Below are positions 3,071-20,522 of a stretch of 34,984 nucleotides of DNA, in pieces (within the stretch, counting starts at the first letter, position 1; each line of letters begins with the position of its first letter). The stretch is from the IMG/VR virus record IMGVR_UViG_3300011334_000232, positions 1 to 34,984 of that record. One strand, 5' to 3'. The notes under the pieces were generated by a model. That model worked only from the letters and a program-made list of their open reading frames with translations. It searched no databases and was not told the origin of the DNA. The translations under genes and the position numbers were made by a program. The DNA is from a virus (Duplodnaviria; Caudoviricetes).

Positions 3071-3433
3071 TTATGCGAGAAATTTCAGTTTATACAGCGT
3101 GCTGTAATACAGGCCAAAAATCTCGTCGATAATGTTTTGGATTGGGGTGCAATCCTTATCGACGACTTTATACCGCATTTCCATCAGTTCGTCTACTTGA
3201 CCTTCAAGAAACTCGACAATGTTGTTGGTTTTCTTAGCCGACATAAGCGAAATAGGGCCAATTAGGCCATATTTGCCCTGATAGGCTTCGGCAAATTTGT
3301 CCGCCAGTTCGATCACTTCGTCGTAAAACTCGTTCAAAGCGGAGTGCTTCGCAAAGCTGCGTGTGTTCAGATGCGTCGAATGGGCTACGTCGCGTGCCAA
3401 AAACAGTGTTCCTACAAAATCAGCGCAACTCAT
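3071..3433 (-). CDS. Dps/ferritin-like four-helix protein (DUF5856-like)
   Basis: AHSTHLNTRSFAKHSALNEFYDEVIELADKFAEAYQG resembles the Dps H..HWN...LH..F.E.Y......D..AE ferroxidase pattern. Confidence 0.65.
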   Translation of the reverse strand: MSCADFVGTLFLARDVAHSTHLNTRSFAKHSALNEFYDEVIELADKFAEAYQGKYGLIGPISLMSAKKTNNIVEFLEGQVDELMEMRYKVVDKDCTPIQNIIDEIFGLYYSTLYKLKFLA

Positions 3434-6321: not shown

Positions 6322-7848
6322 CTAAGAGCCCATCCAACTTGTAGAAATTCCTTGTGGAGAATAACTGCTCATGCGTCGCTTGTCAACGCGTGCTTCGCGG
6401 TGTGCGATAGGAAATGCAAATGTAACCGCGATGGCGTCCGCAGCGTCTGGTGAGGCCAGCCCGCGCGACTTCATGTCCTTCTTGCTTTCGAGGAATATCG
6501 TCCCCTTGCTGTCAGGTTTTATCTTCGGGCTTATCAGGTCCGTTTTCAGGAACCTGTCGTTGGGTATGTGCGCCGTTTTCAGCCAATCCCGCATGGCGCC
6601 CCACATCTCAGCGCGCTTGTTGCCGTACATAAGCTGTTTCATGGCTTTATTGCCAAAGTTCACGCCGCGTATCTTGTACCGCTGCTCTTTCAGCCGGTCT
6701 ACGATGCCTGCGCCTAGCCCGCCTTCGTCGATGACGACCAGCGCAGGCTTGTATTCCTCTATCGCTTCAATGACATGGCCGACCACTTCCATAGTGTCAG
6801 CGCCTTTCAACCGCTTGATGGCGATGAGATCGCGGCCCTGCCGCACAGCGATGACGGTGGCGTCAGCGCCAAAGCGCGCAGGGTCAACACCGATAGCGAT
6901 GGGCGCCGTTTCGTCCTTATACTTGGGCCGTGCCATTGCATCGTCCACCAGATTGACGCCGATGAACTGATCGTCGCCTTCGCTGGGGAATTTACCGAAG
7001 ACTTCGACGTGCGCTTGGTAGCTGTCAGGCCCATATTCGTCGATGATGCGCTGGTACAGGTTTTTATCTGTACCCTCGACTTCACGCGCGTCGATGTTGC
7101 GCGTCTGCCAGAACGCCCGCTTGCTGTGGAATGTCTCGTAGAAATAACCCGTGTTGCGGCGCGGGTTGGAAAAGGCAACATGAAAGCGGTGCGGCGTGTT
7201 CTCTGTGAAGAAACCATCAGACACTGACCATATGGAGTCTGGAATACCGCTGGCTTCGTCGAAGATCAGCAGCACACCGTCTTCGTTGTGCAAACCTGCG
7301 TATGCGTCAGGGTTTTCTTCCGACCATAAACGCCCTTCGACCGACCAATAGCGCGTACCTTTTTTGAGTTCACGTTCTACAATCTCAGTTAGCCATTTGG
7401 CGGGCATAATACGGGTAGCCGCAATCTCATACCAATGGCTGTTAATAGCCATCGCCAACCACTTTGTGATTTCCGCCCATGTAACTGAACGTAACTGCGC
7501 TTCGGAGTTGGCCGAAACAATCACAGACCCACCTATGCGTGTGGACATCATCCAGATAACTAACCAACTGACCAGCGCCGACTTGCCGATACCGCGTCCG
7601 GATGCGACGGCAAGACGAAACGTATCGTAATCTATCTTACCGTTGTTCTGCTCAATATGGTCACGTATGGAACCTAGCACTTCACGCTGCCATCGGCGTG
7701 GGCCGGCGTGTTTTTCTAGTGGCGTGCCGGGTTCGCCCCACGGAAACGCAAGAAGCACAAACGCCAGCGGATCATCTTTAATCGCCGGCGTCCACAAACG
7801 AGCCATAAGCTCGACTTCGTCGCCTGCGCTGTATCTAGGTGCCTGCAT
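6322..7848 (-). CDS. terL: Terminase large subunit
   Basis: Walker A 'SGRGIGKS', Walker B 'LLIFDEAS', coupling motif 'FSNP', nuclease 'IGVDPARFGAD' and 'SPDAADA'. Confidence 0.95.
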   Translation of the reverse strand: MQAPRYSAGDEVELMARLWTPAIKDDPLAFVLLAFPWGEPGTPLEKHAGPRRWQREVLGSIRDHIEQNNGKIDYDTFRLAVASGRGIGKSALVSWLVIWMMSTRIGGSVIVSANSEAQLRSVTWAEITKWLAMAINSHWYEIAATRIMPAKWLTEIVERELKKGTRYWSVEGRLWSEENPDAYAGLHNEDGVLLIFDEASGIPDSIWSVSDGFFTENTPHRFHVAFSNPRRNTGYFYETFHSKRAFWQTRNIDAREVEGTDKNLYQRIIDEYGPDSYQAHVEVFGKFPSEGDDQFIGVNLVDDAMARPKYKDETAPIAIGVDPARFGADATVIAVRQGRDLIAIKRLKGADTMEVVGHVIEAIEEYKPALVVIDEGGLGAGIVDRLKEQRYKIRGVNFGNKAMKQLMYGNKRAEMWGAMRDWLKTAHIPNDRFLKTDLISPKIKPDSKGTIFLESKKDMKSRGLASPDAADAIAVTFAFPIAHREARVDKRRMSSYSPQGISTSWMGS

Positions 7849-8347
7849 TATTTTTCCTAAAAGGTTGGTGCGATGCTTCAGCGGCTTTGCGAGCCAACAC
7901 GGCGTCTTGCTTTGTGTCGTAAAGGCCTAATGTGCGCTGCTTACCGTTAGTTTTAATATCCGCCCGCCAGCGGCCAGATCGTTTATGAAAGCTGACACCC
8001 ATACATCCGCTAGTATTATGTGCAGGTAAATTTCGGTTTTGGTGGTTTTGTGCGCGCGTTACCGCCCGCAAATTAACAAGCCGATTGTCGCACCTAAGTC
8101 GATTAATATGGTCTATTTCGGCGGGCGGCCAAACTCCGTAAATGTACATCCATACTAAACGATGGGCTTTATAGTTATAGCCGTCTACCCTAAGTTGAAC
8201 GTAGTTCAAACCGTTGGAATTGCCAGCGTTGTCACCTGCGCGAACGCGTCCGCGGCTAACACGCCAGCGAAATTCGCCAGTGTCAGGGTTATATGTCAGT
8301 AGACTTTTCAGTCTGTCTTGCGTTATTAAGTTCGTAGCCATTAACAA
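7835..8347 (-). mobile_element. Free-standing HNH endonuclease with C-terminal AP2 DNA-binding domain
   Basis: 'YKAHRLVW...EIDHINRLRCDNRLVNLR' HNH motif; 'NTSG..GVSFHKRSGRWRADI....LGLYDT...A..AR' AP2 motif; sits between terS and terL. Confidence 0.9.
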
Positions 8348-9486: not shown

Positions 9487-9534
9487 CAACACATTTTGTT
9501 GTTGACACTATGACAAAGAGGGTAGATAAGAGGG
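9487..9534 (+). promoter_or_regulatory. Early promoter PE1 with upstream palindrome
   Basis: CAACACATTTTGTTG(9487-9501)-TTGACA(9502-9507)-17 nt-GATAAG; near-duplicate at 10207-10254. Confidence 0.75.
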
Positions 9535-10206: not shown

Positions 10207-10254
10207 CAACAAATTTTGTTGTTGACAGTCTTAGTTTGAGGGTAGATAAGAGGG
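10207..10254 (+). promoter_or_regulatory. Early promoter PE2 with upstream palindrome
   Basis: CAACAAATTTTGTTG(10207-10221)-TTGACA(10222-10227)-17 nt-GATAAG; block GAGGGTAGATAAGAGGG identical to PE1. Confidence 0.75.
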
Positions 10255-13571: not shown

Positions 13572-13637
13572 TAAAAAACCCCCGGCGGAGTGAGGACGCC
13601 GGGGGTTTAATCAGGTCAGCGGAGCATAGCCGACCCT
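13572..13637 (-). ncRNA. Candidate two-hairpin small RNA with C/U-rich (anti-SD-like) loops
   Basis: GGGUCGGC-UAUGCUCC-GCUGACCU stem (G-U pairs favour the - strand), then CCCCCGGCG-UCCUCACUC-CGCCGGGGG-U6; promoter-like TTGACA upstream at 13670-13665. Confidence 0.55.
13573..13608. terminator. Intrinsic terminator between convergent early (+) and replication (-) operons
   Basis: 9-bp all-GC stem (12 bp with A/T), U6 tail on the - strand, TTT on the + strand. Confidence 0.85.
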
Positions 13638-13640
13638 AAA

Positions 13641-13670
13641 CACATACCATTGCAACCAAATGGTTGTCAA
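13641..13670 (-). promoter_or_regulatory. Promoter overlapping the primase stop codon
   Basis: TTGACA(13670-13665)-18 nt-TATGTG with TGn extension; palindrome CAACCA-AA-TGGTTG at 13653-13666. Confidence 0.5.
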
Positions 13671-16012
13671 TTCTTGCCTATGTTTGGCATGATGCTCGAC
13701 TTAGGCAAGTCTTCCGCCAAACGGCGCAAGTCGGACTTGTTCCGTTTCTTCACGTCAGGCGCGGCAAAGATGTGTTTCTTAGTTGGGTGGTCAACGCAAG
13801 CGATGCGCCCCATGTCAACCCAGCCAGCCTCTTTGAGCGCGTGTAGGAGCGCCGCCTGTGGTATCTTCACGCCAGCCGGCACGTTGACCGCCAGCGCGTC
13901 ACAGATGCGATGGAAAGGCCCACCAATGACGCCATTGGCAAACACGCCCGCCTTCTCGCGCATCATGTCCACAAGATAGCTTTCCGCTACGCTCATGCCA
14001 TGCTCGACCATGTTCAACTTCCATTCGGTGACAGGCGGCGCAGCGGCAGGGTTGAACCGCGACACGTCGCGCTGCCACAGCCAAGCGGCGCACTTCTCAT
14101 AGCCGCCGTTCTTATACCACGCCCATAGCTTGTTCGCTGCGGTGGCTGACATACGCGGCGCGTGCGTCCACACGCAGAACCAACGCCTGTCCTGTGTCGG
14201 CAACGTGATAGGCAGCGGATCGTTCGTGTAAGCAATCACCATCAGGCGGTTGACCAACTCATAGGGGTGCATACCCTTGCGGTTGACTGTCAGCGTTTCA
14301 GGCGGCGCAGCGATGAGCGGCTTCAGCTTGTTAGCCATCGCCCTGCGCTCCCGCGCCTCTGGTTCCTTTAATTCGTTTAGGATGACAACTTCAGCCTCAA
14401 GCGCATAGCCCCACTGGCTGTCCAAGCCGCCAGCCTCAATGACTGACCTGTTGCGCCAGTGTTGGCCGCCCAGCGCCCACAGGAACGGCTGGAACATACT
14501 GTCCTTACCGACGCCTTCGTCACCGCCGATCAGGATGGCATGGTTAATCTTGACGTTAGGATGCTGTATCTTGAACGCCATAGCGTCAAGGATATGGTCT
14601 AACTCCTCATCGTCCGCTACCAGATCGCGGCAATGCTGGAGCCACGGCTCAACGTCATGGTCGGCGATTGTGTCGCTGTCCGACACGTCAGGGCGTCCGT
14701 CCACCCAGCGGTTGCCGTAAACCAACCCGTCGCGCGTCACCAAAGTGTCATCGCCAGCGGCGAACGTCACCGCCGACAGCGCAGGCGCACCGCGGTCTTG
14801 CCGGCGCTCGTCAAAATAGATGGACGCCTGCACGCGGTTCTTCTTGCCGTGAATGGATTTGCAGTCAACGTGACGGAACAGGGCGTTGAAGACGTTGCGG
14901 GCTATCTCTTGCCGCGTCACCATGTCAAAATAGCAGTCATCGGACTGTATATAGGCGAAACGCTCAAACCATTCGCTTTGTTCCAGCCGTCCCGCTTCTT
15001 TCTTTTCGACCTCACGCACACGCGCTGCGGCCTCATCAGGAAAAGCGTCGTTCGGTGCGATTTTCTCATACATCGACGCCAGACGCTCTGCGATTAGTTC
15101 GTCACGCAAGCCCGGCGTTACCTTCGGGCCGCCTTCATTGGCTACCCAATCAAGAAAGGTGCGGCTGTCTAAGTCTTGGCAATGCCCATGATAGCAGCAG
15201 AACGAACGATCCAGCGGCTTGTAGCGCGCCTCAATCATGCCGTCGCTGTGCTGCTCATGGTTAGGGCAGACGATGCCGCACCAGCCGTCAGCGTTGACGT
15301 GCGACAAGACTAGGTTCTGTTCGGCAAGCCATGTCAGGACGTTGTCTAGCCCAGTGTCGCGCAACTGCACCGCTTTATATTCGGCTGTGTCGCCTTCCTC
15401 TGGTGTAACGTCCAGCGCCTCGCAGATTTGCCCCAGCGTGTATTCACGCTCAGGGTTGAACGATACCAGCCGCGCTGCAAAGTTATTGCGTCCTTGCTTC
15501 ATGTTGATGCTGCCGGGGATACGGCAGTTGCGGACAGCGTTGGTCGCGCCCGGATCAGTGTAGCCAGCGTCCGCGATAGCCTTGATGGCAGCGCAGAAGT
15601 CGCCCTTGCGCGGCTGTTCGCTGAACGCGTAACCCCACTGGAACGACCCTTCGCTGGTTTCCAGCACCCATGTCGGCGCCAGCGGCGGCTCTTTCGACTT
15701 CGTGCCAACGTCGTCCAGCATCATGAACAACACATACTCGACGTTGCTGGCCTTTGCCGACGGCTTGCCGTCCACAAAGCGGTCAACGATGAACGAGCCT
15801 GTGTTGACATACCATGCCTCGCCTTCTTTCATGCGGGTCTTTTCTGGCAGGAATGCAGGGAACGTCGCCTTCGGTGCGCCGTCTGCGTGGAATATCATGT
15901 TGCCGTCGCTGTCGTGCTGCGGCTTCTGACGCACAACAAGGGCTGTCTCGCCCACATTGTCCGTCGCCAATCCCGTTATATACTCTATGAACTTCGTGCG
16001 ATCCTCACTCAT
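13667..16012 (-). CDS. Primase-helicase (RepB'-type primase, Zn finger, D5/SF3-like helicase)
   Basis: 'FMMLDDVG', 'LETSEGSFQWGY' primase motifs; CPNH..H / CYHGHC; Walker A 'GGDEGVGKD', Walker B 'VILNEL'. Confidence 0.88.
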   Translation of the reverse strand: MSEDRTKFIEYITGLATDNVGETALVVRQKPQHDSDGNMIFHADGAPKATFPAFLPEKTRMKEGEAWYVNTGSFIVDRFVDGKPSAKASNVEYVLFMMLDDVGTKSKEPPLAPTWVLETSEGSFQWGYAFSEQPRKGDFCAAIKAIADAGYTDPGATNAVRNCRIPGSINMKQGRNNFAARLVSFNPEREYTLGQICEALDVTPEEGDTAEYKAVQLRDTGLDNVLTWLAEQNLVLSHVNADGWCGIVCPNHEQHSDGMIEARYKPLDRSFCCYHGHCQDLDSRTFLDWVANEGGPKVTPGLRDELIAERLASMYEKIAPNDAFPDEAAARVREVEKKEAGRLEQSEWFERFAYIQSDDCYFDMVTRQEIARNVFNALFRHVDCKSIHGKKNRVQASIYFDERRQDRGAPALSAVTFAAGDDTLVTRDGLVYGNRWVDGRPDVSDSDTIADHDVEPWLQHCRDLVADDEELDHILDAMAFKIQHPNVKINHAILIGGDEGVGKDSMFQPFLWALGGQHWRNRSVIEAGGLDSQWGYALEAEVVILNELKEPEARERRAMANKLKPLIAAPPETLTVNRKGMHPYELVNRLMVIAYTNDPLPITLPTQDRRWFCVWTHAPRMSATAANKLWAWYKNGGYEKCAAWLWQRDVSRFNPAAAPPVTEWKLNMVEHGMSVAESYLVDMMREKAGVFANGVIGGPFHRICDALAVNVPAGVKIPQAALLHALKEAGWVDMGRIACVDHPTKKHIFAAPDVKKRNKSDLRRLAEDLPKSSIMPNIGKN

Positions 16013-16024
16013 CGCGGTTCTCCT

Positions 16025-16543
16025 TTAATTAACATGTGACCAAACGCGGCCACTACGTACTGCCCAAACATGCTCCCGCGATACGCCATGTTGCAACGCA
16101 AGCACCGACGCATCTAAGTCTGAATTGCGGATGTTTCGAACCGCTGCTTCCGTTAGTTTGGCGTGCGGATGCCGCTCACCTTTTAAACGCCGCCCATGAA
16201 TTTCGGTATCGGCGTGGTTGTCCGCCGGCGACCCCCAGCGAAGGTTATTTGCGGCATTATTGTTTTTGTCACCGTCGTTATGCAGTACGTGCGCGCCTTT
16301 ATGCGGTGGTGGCCCGTGAAAAACAAGCGCCACTAATCTATGGACACACTCCTGCTTACGCTCATCTCCCGCCGTCAATGTCACGGCCCAGTAGCCGTTG
16401 TTTTTCTGGACTAGGGAAAGGTCGCGGCCTTTGCGGATTGCCACAGCACCGCCTTTAGCCCCTACGACCATGTCGCGCGAACGTACAAAACCAGCATCAC
16501 TAATTTCGTAACGAACCCATTTAGGGATGGGTAGCCAAATCAT
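16025..16543 (-). mobile_element. Free-standing NUMOD4-HNH endonuclease
   Basis: 'W.PIP....YEISD.G.VRS' NUMOD4; 'VHRLVA..F...HVLHNDGDKNNN..NNLRWG...DN' HNH; C-terminal HTH-like 'AKLTE'. Confidence 0.9.
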
Positions 16544-18528
16544 TTACCGTATCTTTCCATAATAGCCACTTCCGCATTAAGAGGTAAACCTTGGCACCAA
16601 TCGGGCGGTGTACACATGACATCTACAAGCGTTTTAGCGGCCCATTCCGCCTTTGCTTCGTCTATCTCTAACACAATTTCATCATGGATTGTTAATACCA
16701 CTTCAAGCCCCATCGCGTCAAGTCTACGTAAGGCGTAGCGCAGCAAGTCGTTAGCGACTGCCTGCGTGATGTTCTCACACGCCAGACCGCGCCACAGCCG
16801 CGCCCTTGGCCATTCCTTAGCGTCGGCGGCTGGCTTCCATGAAGCTTTAGCGTAGGTCAGGTTGCCTTCCTCGTCGAAGCGGGCGAAAGGATAACATAAC
16901 ACACGGCCAGACGGAAGAGCATACCAAAGATGCAGCCCGTCAAATAAATATGTGACGCGCCCGATGGTAAACTCGCGGCCCTTGTTCCGCATGGCGCGCA
17001 TATAGGTTTCCTCAAGGCCAGACCAGTAAGGCACGGCCCACTTGTTAGCCCTGCGCCATGCGTCCACCATGCGCCTCGCGTCGCTCTCCGACATCATCAA
17101 GCCGTAGATGCGGCCCATGCTGGCGAATGCGCCGACGCCGCCGGCGAAACCACACGCCAACTCTTGCACTTTACCGATCTGGCGCTGGTCTTTGTCAACG
17201 TCGTCATAGCCGACATGGAATGTCGCCATAGCGTTGTGCTTGTACACATCCTCACCTTTGGCAAAGATGTCTAGCTTGCTTGCACCAAAGATGCTGTTGG
17301 ACGCCCACGGCGTCACCCGCGCTTCGATGGCGGCCCAATCGGCGACGACCAGCCGCTTGCCTGTGTCGGCCATCAGCGCGGGGCGTAGCATACCTTTCAG
17401 CACGTCCGTCACGCGGCGGCCATGATCGGGAACGATCTGGTGTCCGCGCACCATAGCCTGCCGTACTAATGCCGGGTCGGCGGCGCACTTTCGGGGGAAG
17501 TTGTGAACTTGAAGCCCAAATGATGAAGCACGCCCAGTAGCGCTGCCTCCTGCAAAAACAAATGCTCCTCTAACTCGAAAATCTTCCTCATCAGCAAGCG
17601 CCGCTGCACGTTGGAACTTGGCCACGGACGATGCCCACAGATCGTCCGCGCACTGGATGACATCCGCAACTTCCGCCGGTATTTCATCTGAATTCTCCTC
17701 CGCTAACGCCAGCAAGTTGGCGCGCACGTTTTTATCTAGGCATCTATGTTTACGTTCGTTCTTGATAATCGTCATAAGTTTACGGGACTCAGGCCCGACA
17801 CGGTCCCAAACCCAATCCTTCATACGCGTGCTGCGAACGCTTGTAACCTCGCGCTGCGTTATCTCGCACACCAAGTTCTGTATCTCAACTGTTTCTGCAT
17901 TTGAATACGCAACAGCGGCCTGCGCCAGCGGCCTGTCAAGCAGGACGCCGCGGTCGTTGATGCGCTCGTTCACATGGTAGTCGGCCAACTCATCAGCCGA
18001 TAGCGGACGCTGCGCCTGCGCGATGGCGCGCATGGCACGGACATCCTGCGCTCCGTATTCACGAAACTCATCAAACAGAACCGGATCGTCGCTATACGGA
18101 GGTATACACAGTTGCCGAATAAGTTGTTTACCGCGATGGTCTTTTTTCATCGACGCGCCCATAAACCGGCCAGCATCTTCAAGACTACCGGGCGCGCAGT
18201 TAGCCCGCGACTGCGCGGCAGTGCAATACCATTGCTCTATGCGAGGGGTAGGGACGCCGTAATCGGGGCAAACCACATATTCAAATATGAGACGGTCAAA
18301 GCCAGCGTTATGGAAGCGCAGTTGGCCTCCGTCGCGGATATGTTGTTTGACGCAATCAGGAAAAGGTTTGCCGCACGACGGCCACCATTCATCTACATCT
18401 TCATCATCAAAAGCCCAGTTGAACAGTATCAATTGCGTAGACGGATGTTGAGCGTAGTTATACGAACCTGACACAGGCAGGTTGCATTCGCTGCGGGTTT
18501 CCGTATCACCCCATAAAATATTAGACAT
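16540..18528 (-). CDS. Family A DNA polymerase with 3'-5' exonuclease
   Basis: ExoI 'DTET', ExoII 'HNAGFD', ExoIII 'YGAQD'; motif A 'ADWAAIEAR', B 'RQIGKVQELACGF', C 'IHDEIV'; start at ATG 18528 after GAGTGAG. Confidence 0.95.
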   Translation of the reverse strand: MSNILWGDTETRSECNLPVSGSYNYAQHPSTQLILFNWAFDDEDVDEWWPSCGKPFPDCVKQHIRDGGQLRFHNAGFDRLIFEYVVCPDYGVPTPRIEQWYCTAAQSRANCAPGSLEDAGRFMGASMKKDHRGKQLIRQLCIPPYSDDPVLFDEFREYGAQDVRAMRAIAQAQRPLSADELADYHVNERINDRGVLLDRPLAQAAVAYSNAETVEIQNLVCEITQREVTSVRSTRMKDWVWDRVGPESRKLMTIIKNERKHRCLDKNVRANLLALAEENSDEIPAEVADVIQCADDLWASSVAKFQRAAALADEEDFRVRGAFVFAGGSATGRASSFGLQVHNFPRKCAADPALVRQAMVRGHQIVPDHGRRVTDVLKGMLRPALMADTGKRLVVADWAAIEARVTPWASNSIFGASKLDIFAKGEDVYKHNAMATFHVGYDDVDKDQRQIGKVQELACGFAGGVGAFASMGRIYGLMMSESDARRMVDAWRRANKWAVPYWSGLEETYMRAMRNKGREFTIGRVTYLFDGLHLWYALPSGRVLCYPFARFDEEGNLTYAKASWKPAADAKEWPRARLWRGLACENITQAVANDLLRYALRRLDAMGLEVVLTIHDEIVLEIDEAKAEWAAKTLVDVMCTPPDWCQGLPLNAEVAIMERYGK

Positions 18529-18553
18529 AGAAGTTCTCACTCTTCCGCTACTC

Positions 18554-18617
18554 GCCGGGGCATCAAGGCTCTAATGACAACGGTGATTACCGCCCTCGCC
18601 TTGAAGTGTGCCCCAGC
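18554..18617 (-). promoter_or_regulatory. Long interrupted stem-loop in the SSB-polymerase intergenic region
   Basis: Three stacked helices: GCUGGGGCA/UGCCCCGGC, UCAAGGC/GCCUUGA, GGCGGU/ACCGUU. Confidence 0.55.
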
Positions 18618-18629
18618 TTTCGCCCCCTG

Positions 18630-19292
18630 TTAGACTACGCGACGGCGACGACGCGCACCTTCAGGTGCTTCAGGTTCAGCGGCGACTTCCAACTCCGCGT
18701 CCTCTGTCTCTTCAACCGAAGACGTATCCATTGATACCCAATCGGTGATGTCGAAGATAGGCGTATAGATGCGTCCATAGGTCTTGTGCTGGTAATGCTC
18801 AGACTTCAGTTCGATCAACGGCACTGGCTTGGTCTGGTCTTTCTCGACCTGATCGGCGATGGCAACCGCCAAAGCCTGCACCGCACGCTTGCCGCCAACT
18901 GATGTAGCCGTGAAGCGTGCCTGCATATCCTTGTCTTCACCGTTCGTGCAAACCAGCATCATGCCGACTTGCATTTCCCAGCCGCGTTCTGCGCCTGATG
19001 GCGCAGGCTCTAACGCTGGCAGCGGCTCTGACACCGGCACCAGCTTTTCAGCCAGCACTTCGCCTTTACCCCATGCGATGTAGCCATGCACGAATGAGAA
19101 CGGATTGGCGGCCCACAGGCTGCCATCTTCCACTTCGGTCTGGTCTGCACCAAAAACCCAATGGCCTGTCTTGTCCATCTTCAGGATTACTGTGCCCCCC
19201 GGTGCGACTTCGGACTGAATGGAGCGCAGCGCGCCTGAGAGGGACTGAACGGACGGCAAGTTAGCGCCGCCAAAAGTAGTGATATTCGACAT
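18630..19292 (-). CDS. Putative single-stranded DNA-binding protein
   Basis: 220 aa between nuclease and polymerase (the SSB slot in this module); 'Y.HK.YGRIYTP.F.I..W' motif; acidic linker. Confidence 0.65.
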   Translation of the reverse strand: MSNITTFGGANLPSVQSLSGALRSIQSEVAPGGTVILKMDKTGHWVFGADQTEVEDGSLWAANPFSFVHGYIAWGKGEVLAEKLVPVSEPLPALEPAPSGAERGWEMQVGMMLVCTNGEDKDMQARFTATSVGGKRAVQALAVAIADQVEKDQTKPVPLIELKSEHYQHKTYGRIYTPIFDITDWVSMDTSSVEETEDAELEVAAEPEAPEGARRRRRVV

Positions 19293-19310: not shown

Positions 19311-20432
19311 TTACTGGAGTTTAGACATGGCTTTGGTAAGCGTCTGTCCGATTTGCAAAACCGCTGGCCGGGGATCATTTTCCGGCGCAAGGGTAGAGCC
19401 TGTGGAGACGGCGACAATTAAGTCCGCCGGCAATTCTATTTTGGCTTTCTTCAAAGCCTTTTCCGCTTGGGCTGGTGACAGCGGCTTGGGTTCGCCCCAT
19501 GCTTCTACACCAACACCGGACAAGAAGCCTACAGCCTTATCTTCATTTGTCCACTGTCTTGTTGCGCGTTTGTTGACCAACTTCCAGCCGGGGACTTTCT
19601 GTCCCTCTTCCAGAAGTCCATGCGCCAACTGCTGCAAGTCCTTGATGAACCCTTCAATCAGCGGTGCCTGTTCCAGATAGTGTGCGATCTGGTCAACAGG
19701 TAGGGCTTCTAGCTTCACCTTCAGCGCGCGGTCTACAGCGCCTGTCATGACAGGGCAGACAGGCTTTGCCGCGCACCACTTGCAATGGTCGCCTGACGCC
19801 AACGGCGCGTCTGGCCGCTTCGCAATCTCGACGGCAGCGGCAAGCTGTTTCTCGAACCCGTCAACGCGGGCAAGGTCTGTCACCCAACGCTTGACGTAGG
19901 GCGGCTGGACAATGATTAGTTCGACTTCGGTGGCATCTTTGAAAGCCCACGATGTTTCCGGCGTGCGTTTAGCCGCCGCAGCGTAGAAGAGTAGCTGGCT
20001 GTTTTCCTCGACTTCGACAGCCACGCCATCGCCAAACTTCCAATCCAAAACAATCGCTCGACTACCAATGCGACCAAGAAGATCGGTAGAACCAAAAACG
20101 TCAGGCAGAAAATCACCAAAACCAACCCGGCTTTCAACCGCATATTCCATCTCCCCCTTAGGGTCTATTTCGTCCAGCGCACGCAGCGCCGGTATCAGCT
20201 TGTCATCGACCAATGCTTCAGTCAGCACTGTCTTTTCATAGGTCGTGCCAACCAAGCTGTACGGGTCAAGATCGCTTTCTAATATAGATGCGATGGTGTC
20301 GTGCAGGAGCGTGCCTTCGTCGGCGTAGCTGCTGCTGGGCTTTGGCGGGACGGTGTCCACCAGCGCGACGCTGCCGGGGCAGGCGATGACGCGTTTGGCG
20401 GTCGAGCCGCCGACTATCTTACTATGTTGCAT
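19311..20432 (-). CDS. Cas4-like PD-(D/E)XK exonuclease (DUF2800-type)
   Basis: Start MQHSKIVGGS (20432, GAGG RBS); 'CPGS', 'GT.LH', 'GSTD', 'DWKFG', 'QL..YA', 'CKWC.....C' (four Cys, Fe-S type). Confidence 0.88.
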   Translation of the reverse strand: MQHSKIVGGSTAKRVIACPGSVALVDTVPPKPSSSYADEGTLLHDTIASILESDLDPYSLVGTTYEKTVLTEALVDDKLIPALRALDEIDPKGEMEYAVESRVGFGDFLPDVFGSTDLLGRIGSRAIVLDWKFGDGVAVEVEENSQLLFYAAAAKRTPETSWAFKDATEVELIIVQPPYVKRWVTDLARVDGFEKQLAAAVEIAKRPDAPLASGDHCKWCAAKPVCPVMTGAVDRALKVKLEALPVDQIAHYLEQAPLIEGFIKDLQQLAHGLLEEGQKVPGWKLVNKRATRQWTNEDKAVGFLSGVGVEAWGEPKPLSPAQAEKALKKAKIELPADLIVAVSTGSTLAPENDPRPAVLQIGQTLTKAMSKLQ

Positions 20433-20462
20433 ATCGTACCTCACTCTACTGTTTGAGCGGCC

Positions 20463-20522
20463 ATAATACATACAACAAAATTTGATGCAACCCTTGAAAT
20501 GCAAAAAATTTTGTAGTAGCCC
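20463..20522. promoter_or_regulatory. Divergent promoters with two palindromic operator-like sites
   Basis: (-) TTGCAT(20490-85)-16-TATTAT(20468-63); (+) TTGAAA(20494-99)-17-TAGCCC(20517-22); palindrome variants at 20473-20487 and 20502-20516. Confidence 0.65.

Follow-up and report, generated by a model that had tools for sequence, protein, structure and literature searches.

A candidate phage small RNA whose terminator loop changes together with sites at the starts of replication genes

Introduction

The antisense RNAs that control plasmid replication are encoded in cis and are fully complementary to one target, and RNA and target therefore change together automatically. Among phage RNAs, the C4 antisense RNA of P1 and P7 has icd-ant as its target. 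According to the sections of the account cited here, C4 is phage-encoded and acts in trans, its loops pair with non-overlapping sites of a phage message so that the ribosome-binding site is occluded, and a few base changes in RNA and target shift its specificity; it is made up of three stems, is cut by RNase P from a precursor, and serves immunity and lysogeny (PMC5320573). The plasmid RNAs (e.g. R1 CopA/CopT, pIP501 and pMV158 RNAII) control the synthesis of replication proteins, and the cited portion of the review describes pairing that often starts by loop-loop kissing with a YUNR motif, as well as loop mutations that found new specificity groups (PMC4485353). Few phage regulatory RNAs have been described; in the cited part of that source, lambda PreS is an Hfq-dependent RNA acting on host genes such as dnaN and OOP an antisense RNA to the cII-O message, and neither is presented as repressing several phage replication genes in trans (10.1101/2024.10.31.621285). 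The cuckoo (PMC4615179) and AbcR1/2 (PMC8844928) RNAs, in the excerpts cited, are chromosomal host RNAs, AbcR1/2 using two independent seeds to block the ribosome-binding sites of many messages, with transport and metabolic genes as targets of AbcR.

Here we describe a candidate RNA in an uncultured virus record (IMGVR_UViG_3300011334_000232; the whole stretch of 34,984 nucleotides that was analysed is called the window). The initial annotation, made from the sequence alone, had proposed a two-hairpin RNA downstream of the primase gene, with a second loop antisense to the translation starts of three replication genes, and had pointed to cuckoo and AbcR RNAs as known parallels. Like C4, the candidate has loops complementary to separate phage target sites, and loops and sites co-vary between phages. 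Unlike C4, it consists of two hairpins with its own predicted promoter and terminator, its seed lies in the terminator loop, and its sites belong to three replication genes. It resembles the plasmid RNAs in that control of replication-protein synthesis is predicted, here from the position of the sites, but RNA and targets lie 2.4-6.9 kb apart and have only 7-9 nt in common, and separate changes are needed in each. It is also akin to OOP and PreS, small phage RNAs with effects, according to the cited part of the source, on the replication region or on DNA replication (10.1101/2024.10.31.621285). With cuckoo and AbcR1/2 it shares, to judge from the excerpts cited, a short multi-hairpin build and C/U-rich single-stranded seeds, but its loop motifs are CUCACU and UUGCUCC as against CCUCCUCCC, CUCCUCCC and UUCCCCUC (PMC4615179, PMC8844928).

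Materials and methods

In total, 469 loci were fetched by primase-based scans and one pattern scan. The first 450 loci gave 273 with a distinct full primase and both flanks after partial loci and exact duplicates had been dropped, and L451-L469 were read apart from the 273 (11 loci, nine of them new). Clustering at 90% identity yielded 104 clusters, that is, 41 ingroup clusters (primase more than 64% identical to that of the window) and 63 outgroup clusters (64% or less). All trees are quick-search trees.

Results

The phage and its replication operon

The window is a virus record estimated as 93% complete, with P22-like structural genes. On the - strand, the replication operon runs in the order DUF2800 nuclease, 220-aa gene, family A polymerase, NUMOD4/HNH gene, primase-helicase; an SNF2 helicase gene is divergent from it, and at the primase end it is met by convergent small genes of the + strand. 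The main features, all on the - strand, are:

20463..20490, - strand: predicted promoter of the replication operon (TTGCAT ... TATTAT), read off the sequence
19311..20432, - strand: DUF2800 / PD-(D/E)XK (Cas4-like) nuclease, first gene of the operon, starting at ATG 20432
16540..18528, - strand: family A DNA polymerase, starting at ATG 18528
13667..16012, - strand: primase-helicase of 781 aa, with a DUF5906 P-loop region and a weak RepB_primase match below the Pfam cut-off

The HNH gene between polymerase and primase and the 220-aa gene carry no loop-match site. For the 220-aa gene, Pfam gave no match and PHROG a single hit; to judge by position alone, it might encode a single-strand binding protein. 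Two HNH endonuclease genes occur in the window (16025-16543 and 7835-8347, - strand), the one preceding the primase being missing from most relatives; the ribosome site of the primase reads GGAGAA in the window and GGAGCA in most relatives. Amid the structural genes, a DUF5856 protein is encoded at 3071-3433 (- strand; PHROG label: starvation-inducible regulator).

No Pfam repressor or integrase was found among the 29 window proteins, and the complete relatives gave no match to PF00589 (0/4), PF01381 (HTH_3; 0/4) or PF00239 (0/5). The group apparently consists of non-integrating podophages. The phages carrying the RNA form a large uncultured group of hundreds of metagenomic contigs, mainly from aquatic samples. 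A genome scan for the host returned two contigs, one being a 1.4-kb piece in a Roseomonas MAG, with the capsid gene in neither genome; the promoter style hints that the host might be alphaproteobacterial.

An inverted CAAC-N6/7-GTTG box occurs at 13653-13666 (spacer of the RNA promoter described below), at 9487-9501 and 10207-10221 (upstream of two early-gene promoters) and, with one mismatch, at 20473-20487 (nuclease promoter). A host or phage protein may use this box as its operator; the spacer of the RNA promoter differs in many relatives. The initial annotation had suggested that the RNA possibly replaces a protein repressor; HTH_3 proteins and integrases were not found in four complete relatives, but the box, being present in several promoters, hints at a protein regulator. 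The start of the gene before the terminase large subunit (8795, - strand) carries the seed word in the sense of the RNA loop in many relatives and is one base off it in the window, which may be a coding coincidence.

The predicted small RNA unit

All of the elements named in the initial annotation (promoter, two hairpins, run of six U, loop and three matches) were recovered, at the following positions:

13641..13670, - strand: predicted RNA promoter, with TTGACA at 13670-13665, an 18-nt spacer and an extended -10 TG-G-TATGTG (TG at 13649-13648, TATGTG at 13646-13641)
13573..13636, - strand: predicted small RNA of about 62-64 nt, its 5' end placed from the -10 box
13613..13636, - strand: hairpin 1, loop UAUGCUCC at 13628-13621, with weaker evidence than for loop 2
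13573..13608, - strand: hairpin 2, an intrinsic terminator (paired 13608-13576) with seed loop UCCUCACUC at 13596-13588
15998..16015, - strand: target 1, primase-start hairpin GCGAU-GAGUGAGG-AUCGC, which holds the start codon (16012); loop match 16010-16002
18529..18546, - strand: target 2, polymerase leader hairpin with loop AGUGAGAA, directly 5' of ATG 18528; match 18542-18536
20439..20446, - strand: target 3, ribosome-binding region of the nuclease (ATG 20432); 8-nt loop match

The promoter TTGACA overlaps the primase stop TGA (13669-13667), the core of the terminator loop is CUCACU, and the U-tail comprises the six U at 13578-13573. The two-hairpin unit folds at -36.1 kcal/mol (z -5.0), which none of 200 shuffles equalled. 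GAGTGAGGA occurs once on the - strand (16010) in the 35 kb, and GAGTGAG exactly three times on the - strand (16010, 18542 and 20446) and once on the + strand, the latter being the loop itself. Among 51 start regions (-25..+15), the top matches of the loop are the primase (9 nt), the nuclease (8 nt) and the polymerase (7 nt). In a control with random 9-mers resembling the anti-Shine-Dalgarno sequence, 103 of 4000 matched at least three window start regions over at least 7 nt, and 4 of 4000 did so inside the seven genes of the replication module. The probability of chance within the window is thus low yet non-negligible, since the loop itself resembles an anti-Shine-Dalgarno sequence. These statistics are suggestive, short of decisive, and relatives were therefore collected; the deciding evidence is comparative.

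Searched with a covariance model of the hairpin, the window showed no second copy. Contigs of this group come from 24 sequence runs, three of which are on record as RNA; contigs from four runs comprise mixed relatives across coding and non-coding DNA alike and come without ends, strand or level, and so say nothing about expression.

Conservation of the unit in relatives

The ingroup forms one supported clade. The unit of promoter, hairpin 1 and terminator hairpin with loop core CUCACU is present in 40 of its 41 clusters. A TTG-N18-T-NN-TA pattern near the primase stop, mostly within primase codons, occurs in 37 of the 41 ingroup clusters (missing in L367, L183, L232 and L189), compared with 1 of the 63 outgroup clusters and 1 of 616 primase-coding windows. 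In relatives with 80-98% identity it is placed after the primase stop, as in the window, whereas in the clades at 66-74% it lies within the last primase codons, at an offset from the stop that varies by lineage. Since the promoter pattern is kept in this way, the RNA looks independent rather than derived from a 3' UTR, the two origins that the initial annotation had offered.

All 10 pairs of the terminator stem show changes on both sides among 40 sequences, with 87% of cells pairing and none of 500 shuffles reaching this level, although the structure was derived from the same sequences and kinship was uncorrected. The CTCA of the terminator loop is invariant (40/40), in line with the conservation that the initial annotation had made a test of its reading. 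Outgroup phages mostly have a plain terminator at this position, often in the opposite direction, and a covariance model run on 60 outgroup loci and L192 retrieved mostly generic terminators, plus a variant unit in L301/L306. In some loci (L043, L045, L052-L057, L060-L062, L072 and L073), a 20-25 nt insertion in hairpin 1 brings the RNA to about 85 nt. Several outgroup loci (L128, L130, L143, L148, L273, L279, L284 and L439) have short tandem repeats after the primase stop, e.g. units of GAAAATAGCGT or AAAAAACGGGAGCG type, which are possible origins or iterons.

Target sites at the gene starts

The seed word is far commoner at these starts than in the outgroup phages: at the primase in 40/41 ingroup vs 3/63 outgroup clusters, in the polymerase leader in 33/37 vs 2/53, and at the nuclease in 20/32 vs 0/49. 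Of the three targets originally proposed, the nuclease is the weakest; its site is missing in 12 of 32 ingroup clusters and reads AAGGAAGG in many close relatives. In the window, the nuclease site can pair locally and falls outside the 16 best sites once the cost of opening is counted, so it may be masked; the polymerase site ranks 9 on that measure.

In 38 of 41 ingroup clusters, the primase start folds into a hairpin of 5 bp whose loop contains the site; the AUG lies within the stem. Primase codons 2-5 are identical in all 37 clusters starting with M/V-S-E (a selected set), compared with full invariance at 9 of 379 other conserved degenerate primase columns; at none of the other conserved columns for Ser (14) and Asp (26) do most clusters use AGT or GAT, respectively. 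Outgroup primases are without the SEDRTK extension, in which the site is encoded. The loop at the polymerase site sits on stems that change on both sides (GGAUG/CAUCC, GGUUG/CAACC, GAAG/CUUC, UGAAG/CUUCA). Primase and polymerase sites are thus both loops of hairpins, which points to loop-loop pairing; pairing within the target stems is weak (about -2 to -9 kcal/mol).

When genes are inserted, the site stays at the first start after the leader, i.e. at the start of the inserted gene. Three loci (L199:3526, L262:2863 and L387:1296) have inserted genes of 252-308 aa between polymerase and primase that start MSEDR...; a second primase-start hairpin opens these genes, which therefore inherit the target site. 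The polymerase leader also contains a long hairpin (window 18552-18615, - strand; z -3.5 for 18520-18632) ending CCCCGGC-GAGUAGC. This end is kept across the ingroup, L301 and L192, with a AGCGAGUAG trace in some outgroups, and the hairpin might serve in processing or as a switch.

Joint changes of loop and sites

Among the 273 loci with distinct primases, each of the 125 with a CUCAC loop has AGUGAG at the primase start, and the four with a CUCAA loop (CUCAAU), from two lineages, have AUUGAG only; either word is found at the primase start in 4 of 144 loopless loci. In L374/L375 the loop changed from C to A and the primase and polymerase sites from G to T, while the nuclease site was unchanged. 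In L367/L448/L450 the same loop change goes with a change of the primase site, and the polymerase and nuclease sites are missing. A single clade of these two sets is rejected (p-AU 5e-7; LG+G4, quick tree). Pairing energies follow the changes: the window loop gives -15.0 kcal/mol with the window primase site vs -8.8 with the changed site, and the L367 loop -12.7 kcal/mol with its cognate vs -8.8 with the non-cognate site. As to the variant 18-mer, three of its five viral matches proved to be unrelated contigs.

In L192-194/L414, promoter and terminator are kept, while the loop and all three sites are lost together; the first loop has an 8-nt match to the primase ribosome site of the same phages and a 6-nt match to the polymerase leader. 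L300/L301/L306 have a terminator loop AUUGCUCC, with GGAGCA at all three starts (7, 6 and 8 nt in L301). L301 and L306 were found by the covariance model, and their primases are 55-56% identical to that of the window. At the L301-type sites clear hairpin loops were not seen, the sites being plain ribosome-binding words. The lineage has a polymerase leader in common with the ingroup, yet is a long branch in the outgroup, and its loop and sites may therefore reflect module exchange. The co-variation of loop and targets that the initial annotation had named as a test is thus found in separate lineages, although there are few compensatory events (two single-base changes, one loss and one seed swap). 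In addition, the loop reads CUCACC in L165 and L232, where the primase site has stayed the same, and in L264 and L378 the loop is kept with altered polymerase sites.

Possible wider regulon and the first loop

In the clade of the window, 39/39 clusters at 95% identity leave the last C of the loop unpaired, and the G that matches it is the first base of the polymerase site in 28/28 cases vs 8/27 elsewhere. Before the variable early genes of the opposite strand, GGAGUGAG is used in this clade more often than any other ribosome-binding word. Opposite-strand GGAGTGAG..ATG gave 52 hits in 28/39 window-clade loci, ahead of many different genes, compared with 3 hits in 1/42 other ingroup loci and 1 in 1/78 outgroup loci, counts that the spread of a shared cassette leader may have inflated; the window itself has no such early-gene site. 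Being on the opposite strand, these sites could be reached only in trans. The extra exposed C and the frequency of GGAGUGAG suggest that the same RNA probably lowers early genes too in the clade of the window.

The loop of hairpin 1 is usually UUUGCUCC in relatives. GGAGCA, the word that it matches, makes up 50/256 and 76/234 of opposite-strand GGAG sites in the ingroup vs 29/286 in the outgroup, and these counts could likewise be inflated by shared cassette leaders. Loop 1 matches its cognate ribosome site over a mean of 5.05 nt vs 4.65 nt when shuffled (p=0.003, kinship uncorrected). The all-gene matrix for loop 1 had no clear diagonal, and the match to the window primase site is 4 nt only. 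A role of loop 1 as second seed, directed at ribosome-binding sites of GGAGCA type, is thus possible but no more than suggested. Two early genes of the window (9786 and 10845, + strand) have GGAGCA words complementary to loop 1 over 6 nt.

Comparison with described families

The Rfam search of the window gave eight matches at E<=5, all below threshold, one of which (NsiR1) reflects terminator likeness; the cuckoo models were not among these eight, and eight relatives gave no gathering hits. Neither the window nor the eight relatives matched the Rfam C4 model. The adjacent hairpins with variable stems (two to four) agree with the cuckoo description, but CCUCCUCCC, which by the cited excerpt occupies each hairpin loop (PMC4615179), is absent from the window loops, UAUGCUCC and UCCUCACUC. 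Of the AbcR/alpha-r15 hallmarks in the cited excerpt (PMC8844928), neither aSD1 (CUCCUCCC) in the 5' loop nor aSD2 (UUCCCCUC) between the stems was found; the L192 lineage alone has an aSD-like UUUCCCCUCC in its 5' loop. With the family motifs missing and no Rfam match, the suggested likeness to cuckoo and AbcR does not extend to membership. The ssi sites of RepB', given in the cited part of the source as two near-identical 40-nt sites in one origin, on opposite strands and read 5' of the hairpin (PMC8567376), do not describe this locus either: its four hairpins have unlike stems and flanks and occur at gene starts that are kilobases from one another. As in plasmid kissing-loop systems, RNA and target have complementary hairpin loops with YUNR in one of them (not seen in the L301 lineage), although the invariant CTCA is also demanded by complementarity alone; the cis-encoded full complementarity of those systems is lacking. 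Judged by function, C4 RNA and plasmid kissing-loop control would be nearer analogues than cuckoo and AbcR, although the structure departs from the definitions of both.

In the literature searched and in tables of the IMG/VR structured-RNA catalogue (PMC10690425), nothing matched the RNA, its motif or the neighbouring domains; the hairpin may be an unnamed candidate in that catalogue.

Discussion

The promoter pattern, hairpins and terminator, the complementary sites, the hairpins around two of them (primase and polymerase), and the joint changes of loop and sites together point to what is apparently a real and uncatalogued phage riboregulator. That the loop pairs with the sites, in whatever mode, we hold to be highly probable. 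We also think it probable, at a lower level of confidence, that the element is a small RNA acting in trans by loop-loop pairing at start regions, blocking ribosomes as a brake that depends on time or copy number. An RNA of about 63 nt with two hairpins would be transcribed as a discrete species, with a promoter of its own where the primase gene ends, and its terminator loop would pair in trans with the loops that match it where translation of primase, polymerase and nuclease begins. Pairing would begin as a loop-loop kiss, with which the invariant CUCA as a YUNR U-turn motif is consistent, and would block ribosome loading. Repression is the outcome we infer because either the Shine-Dalgarno sequence or the start codon falls within each site. 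As the RNA, probably stable, and genome copies build up, synthesis of the catalytic replication enzymes would fall, whereas the untargeted 220-aa gene of the same operon would keep being expressed. A dose- or time-dependent brake is most likely the purpose of the RNA.

The same pairing could have another outcome, namely activation or message stabilisation by the opening of start-codon hairpins, the primase AUG lying in a stem that strand invasion could open. An RNA bound at the Shine-Dalgarno sequence or the first codons should obstruct the ribosome, and the paired bases are the Shine-Dalgarno region in polymerase and nuclease and codons 1-4 in the primase; the weakness of the target stems also argues against activation, which we consider very improbable despite the precedent of lambda PreS, reported in the cited part of the source to activate dnaN by exposing its ribosome-binding site (10.1101/2024.10.31.621285). 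Another possibility is that the hairpins are read by a protein, the loop word being a priming signal for a RepB'-like primase (ssiA/ssiB type) or the RNA operator of a translational repressor with the opposite-strand transcript as decoy. This would fit the weak RepB_primase match of the primase and the two hairpin sites, on opposite strands, at which RepB' acts in the cited part of the source (PMC8567376), and shifted protein specificity would likewise give joint changes. Yet RepB' is described there as binding six bases before the hairpin, with the loop unbound (PMC8567376), while here the sites track translation starts upon gene insertion, the complementary copy is flanked by a promoter and a one-directional U-tail, and the L301 sites are plain words outside hairpins. 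Furthermore, a convergent decoy transcript would be unexpected in the L196 and L367 lineages, because their downstream gene is co-oriented with the primase. A protein reader is thus decidedly unlikely.

By a logic like the fold-back inhibition of hok mRNA, the terminator loop at the 3' end might pair in cis with the starts on its own finished message, limiting translation to the time of synthesis. The three main targets and the terminator do share one operon message, and the L367 lineage has compensated between loop and primase while lacking a recognisable promoter pattern, polymerase site or nuclease site. However, a dedicated promoter pattern is kept in most clusters, even within codons and at varying stop offsets, one loop could not hold three sites of one molecule simultaneously, and the seed word stands on opposite-strand early genes in the clade of the window. 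We therefore regard cis fold-back as unlikely, noting that cis and trans modes are mutually compatible. An ordinary terminator, its loop resembling Shine-Dalgarno-like words through chance or shared descent, would fit the anti-Shine-Dalgarno-like loop, the 103 of 4000 control 9-mers that match at least three window starts, and the plain terminators at the same place in outgroups. The separate compensatory changes, coordinated loss and seed swap, the loop invariant inside a freely varying stem, and the four frozen primase codons, with choices that never prevail at other conserved Ser and Asp columns, make it extremely improbable.

Complementarity alone is the usual basis for bacterial sRNA-target pairs. 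In this phage group there are natural compensatory mutants, with single-base swaps on two separate occasions, one coordinated loss and one exchange of the entire seed, so that a trans RNA-RNA interaction of uncultured phages can be tested by reporters in a laboratory strain without the host. If the proposed trans-acting brake is true, antisense replication control in the style of plasmids would have been rebuilt in trans for several genes, the N-terminal extension and C-terminal codons of the primase would be RNA and promoter signals rather than protein features, and a timing or exclusion mechanism would be at hand for a phage group with hundreds of metagenomic contigs. As a more speculative extension, in which we place limited confidence, these apparently non-integrating podophages might run their early-to-late switch or copy number by an RNA regulon, one 63-nt RNA with two interchangeable loop seeds silencing the replication enzymes and variable early genes through start-region hairpin receptors, one of which would consist of added primase codons; the seed variants CUCACU, CUCAAU, UUGCUCC and UUCCCCU would then be incompatibility groups. 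Were this so, an established infection could block the replication of a co-infecting relative with the same seed.
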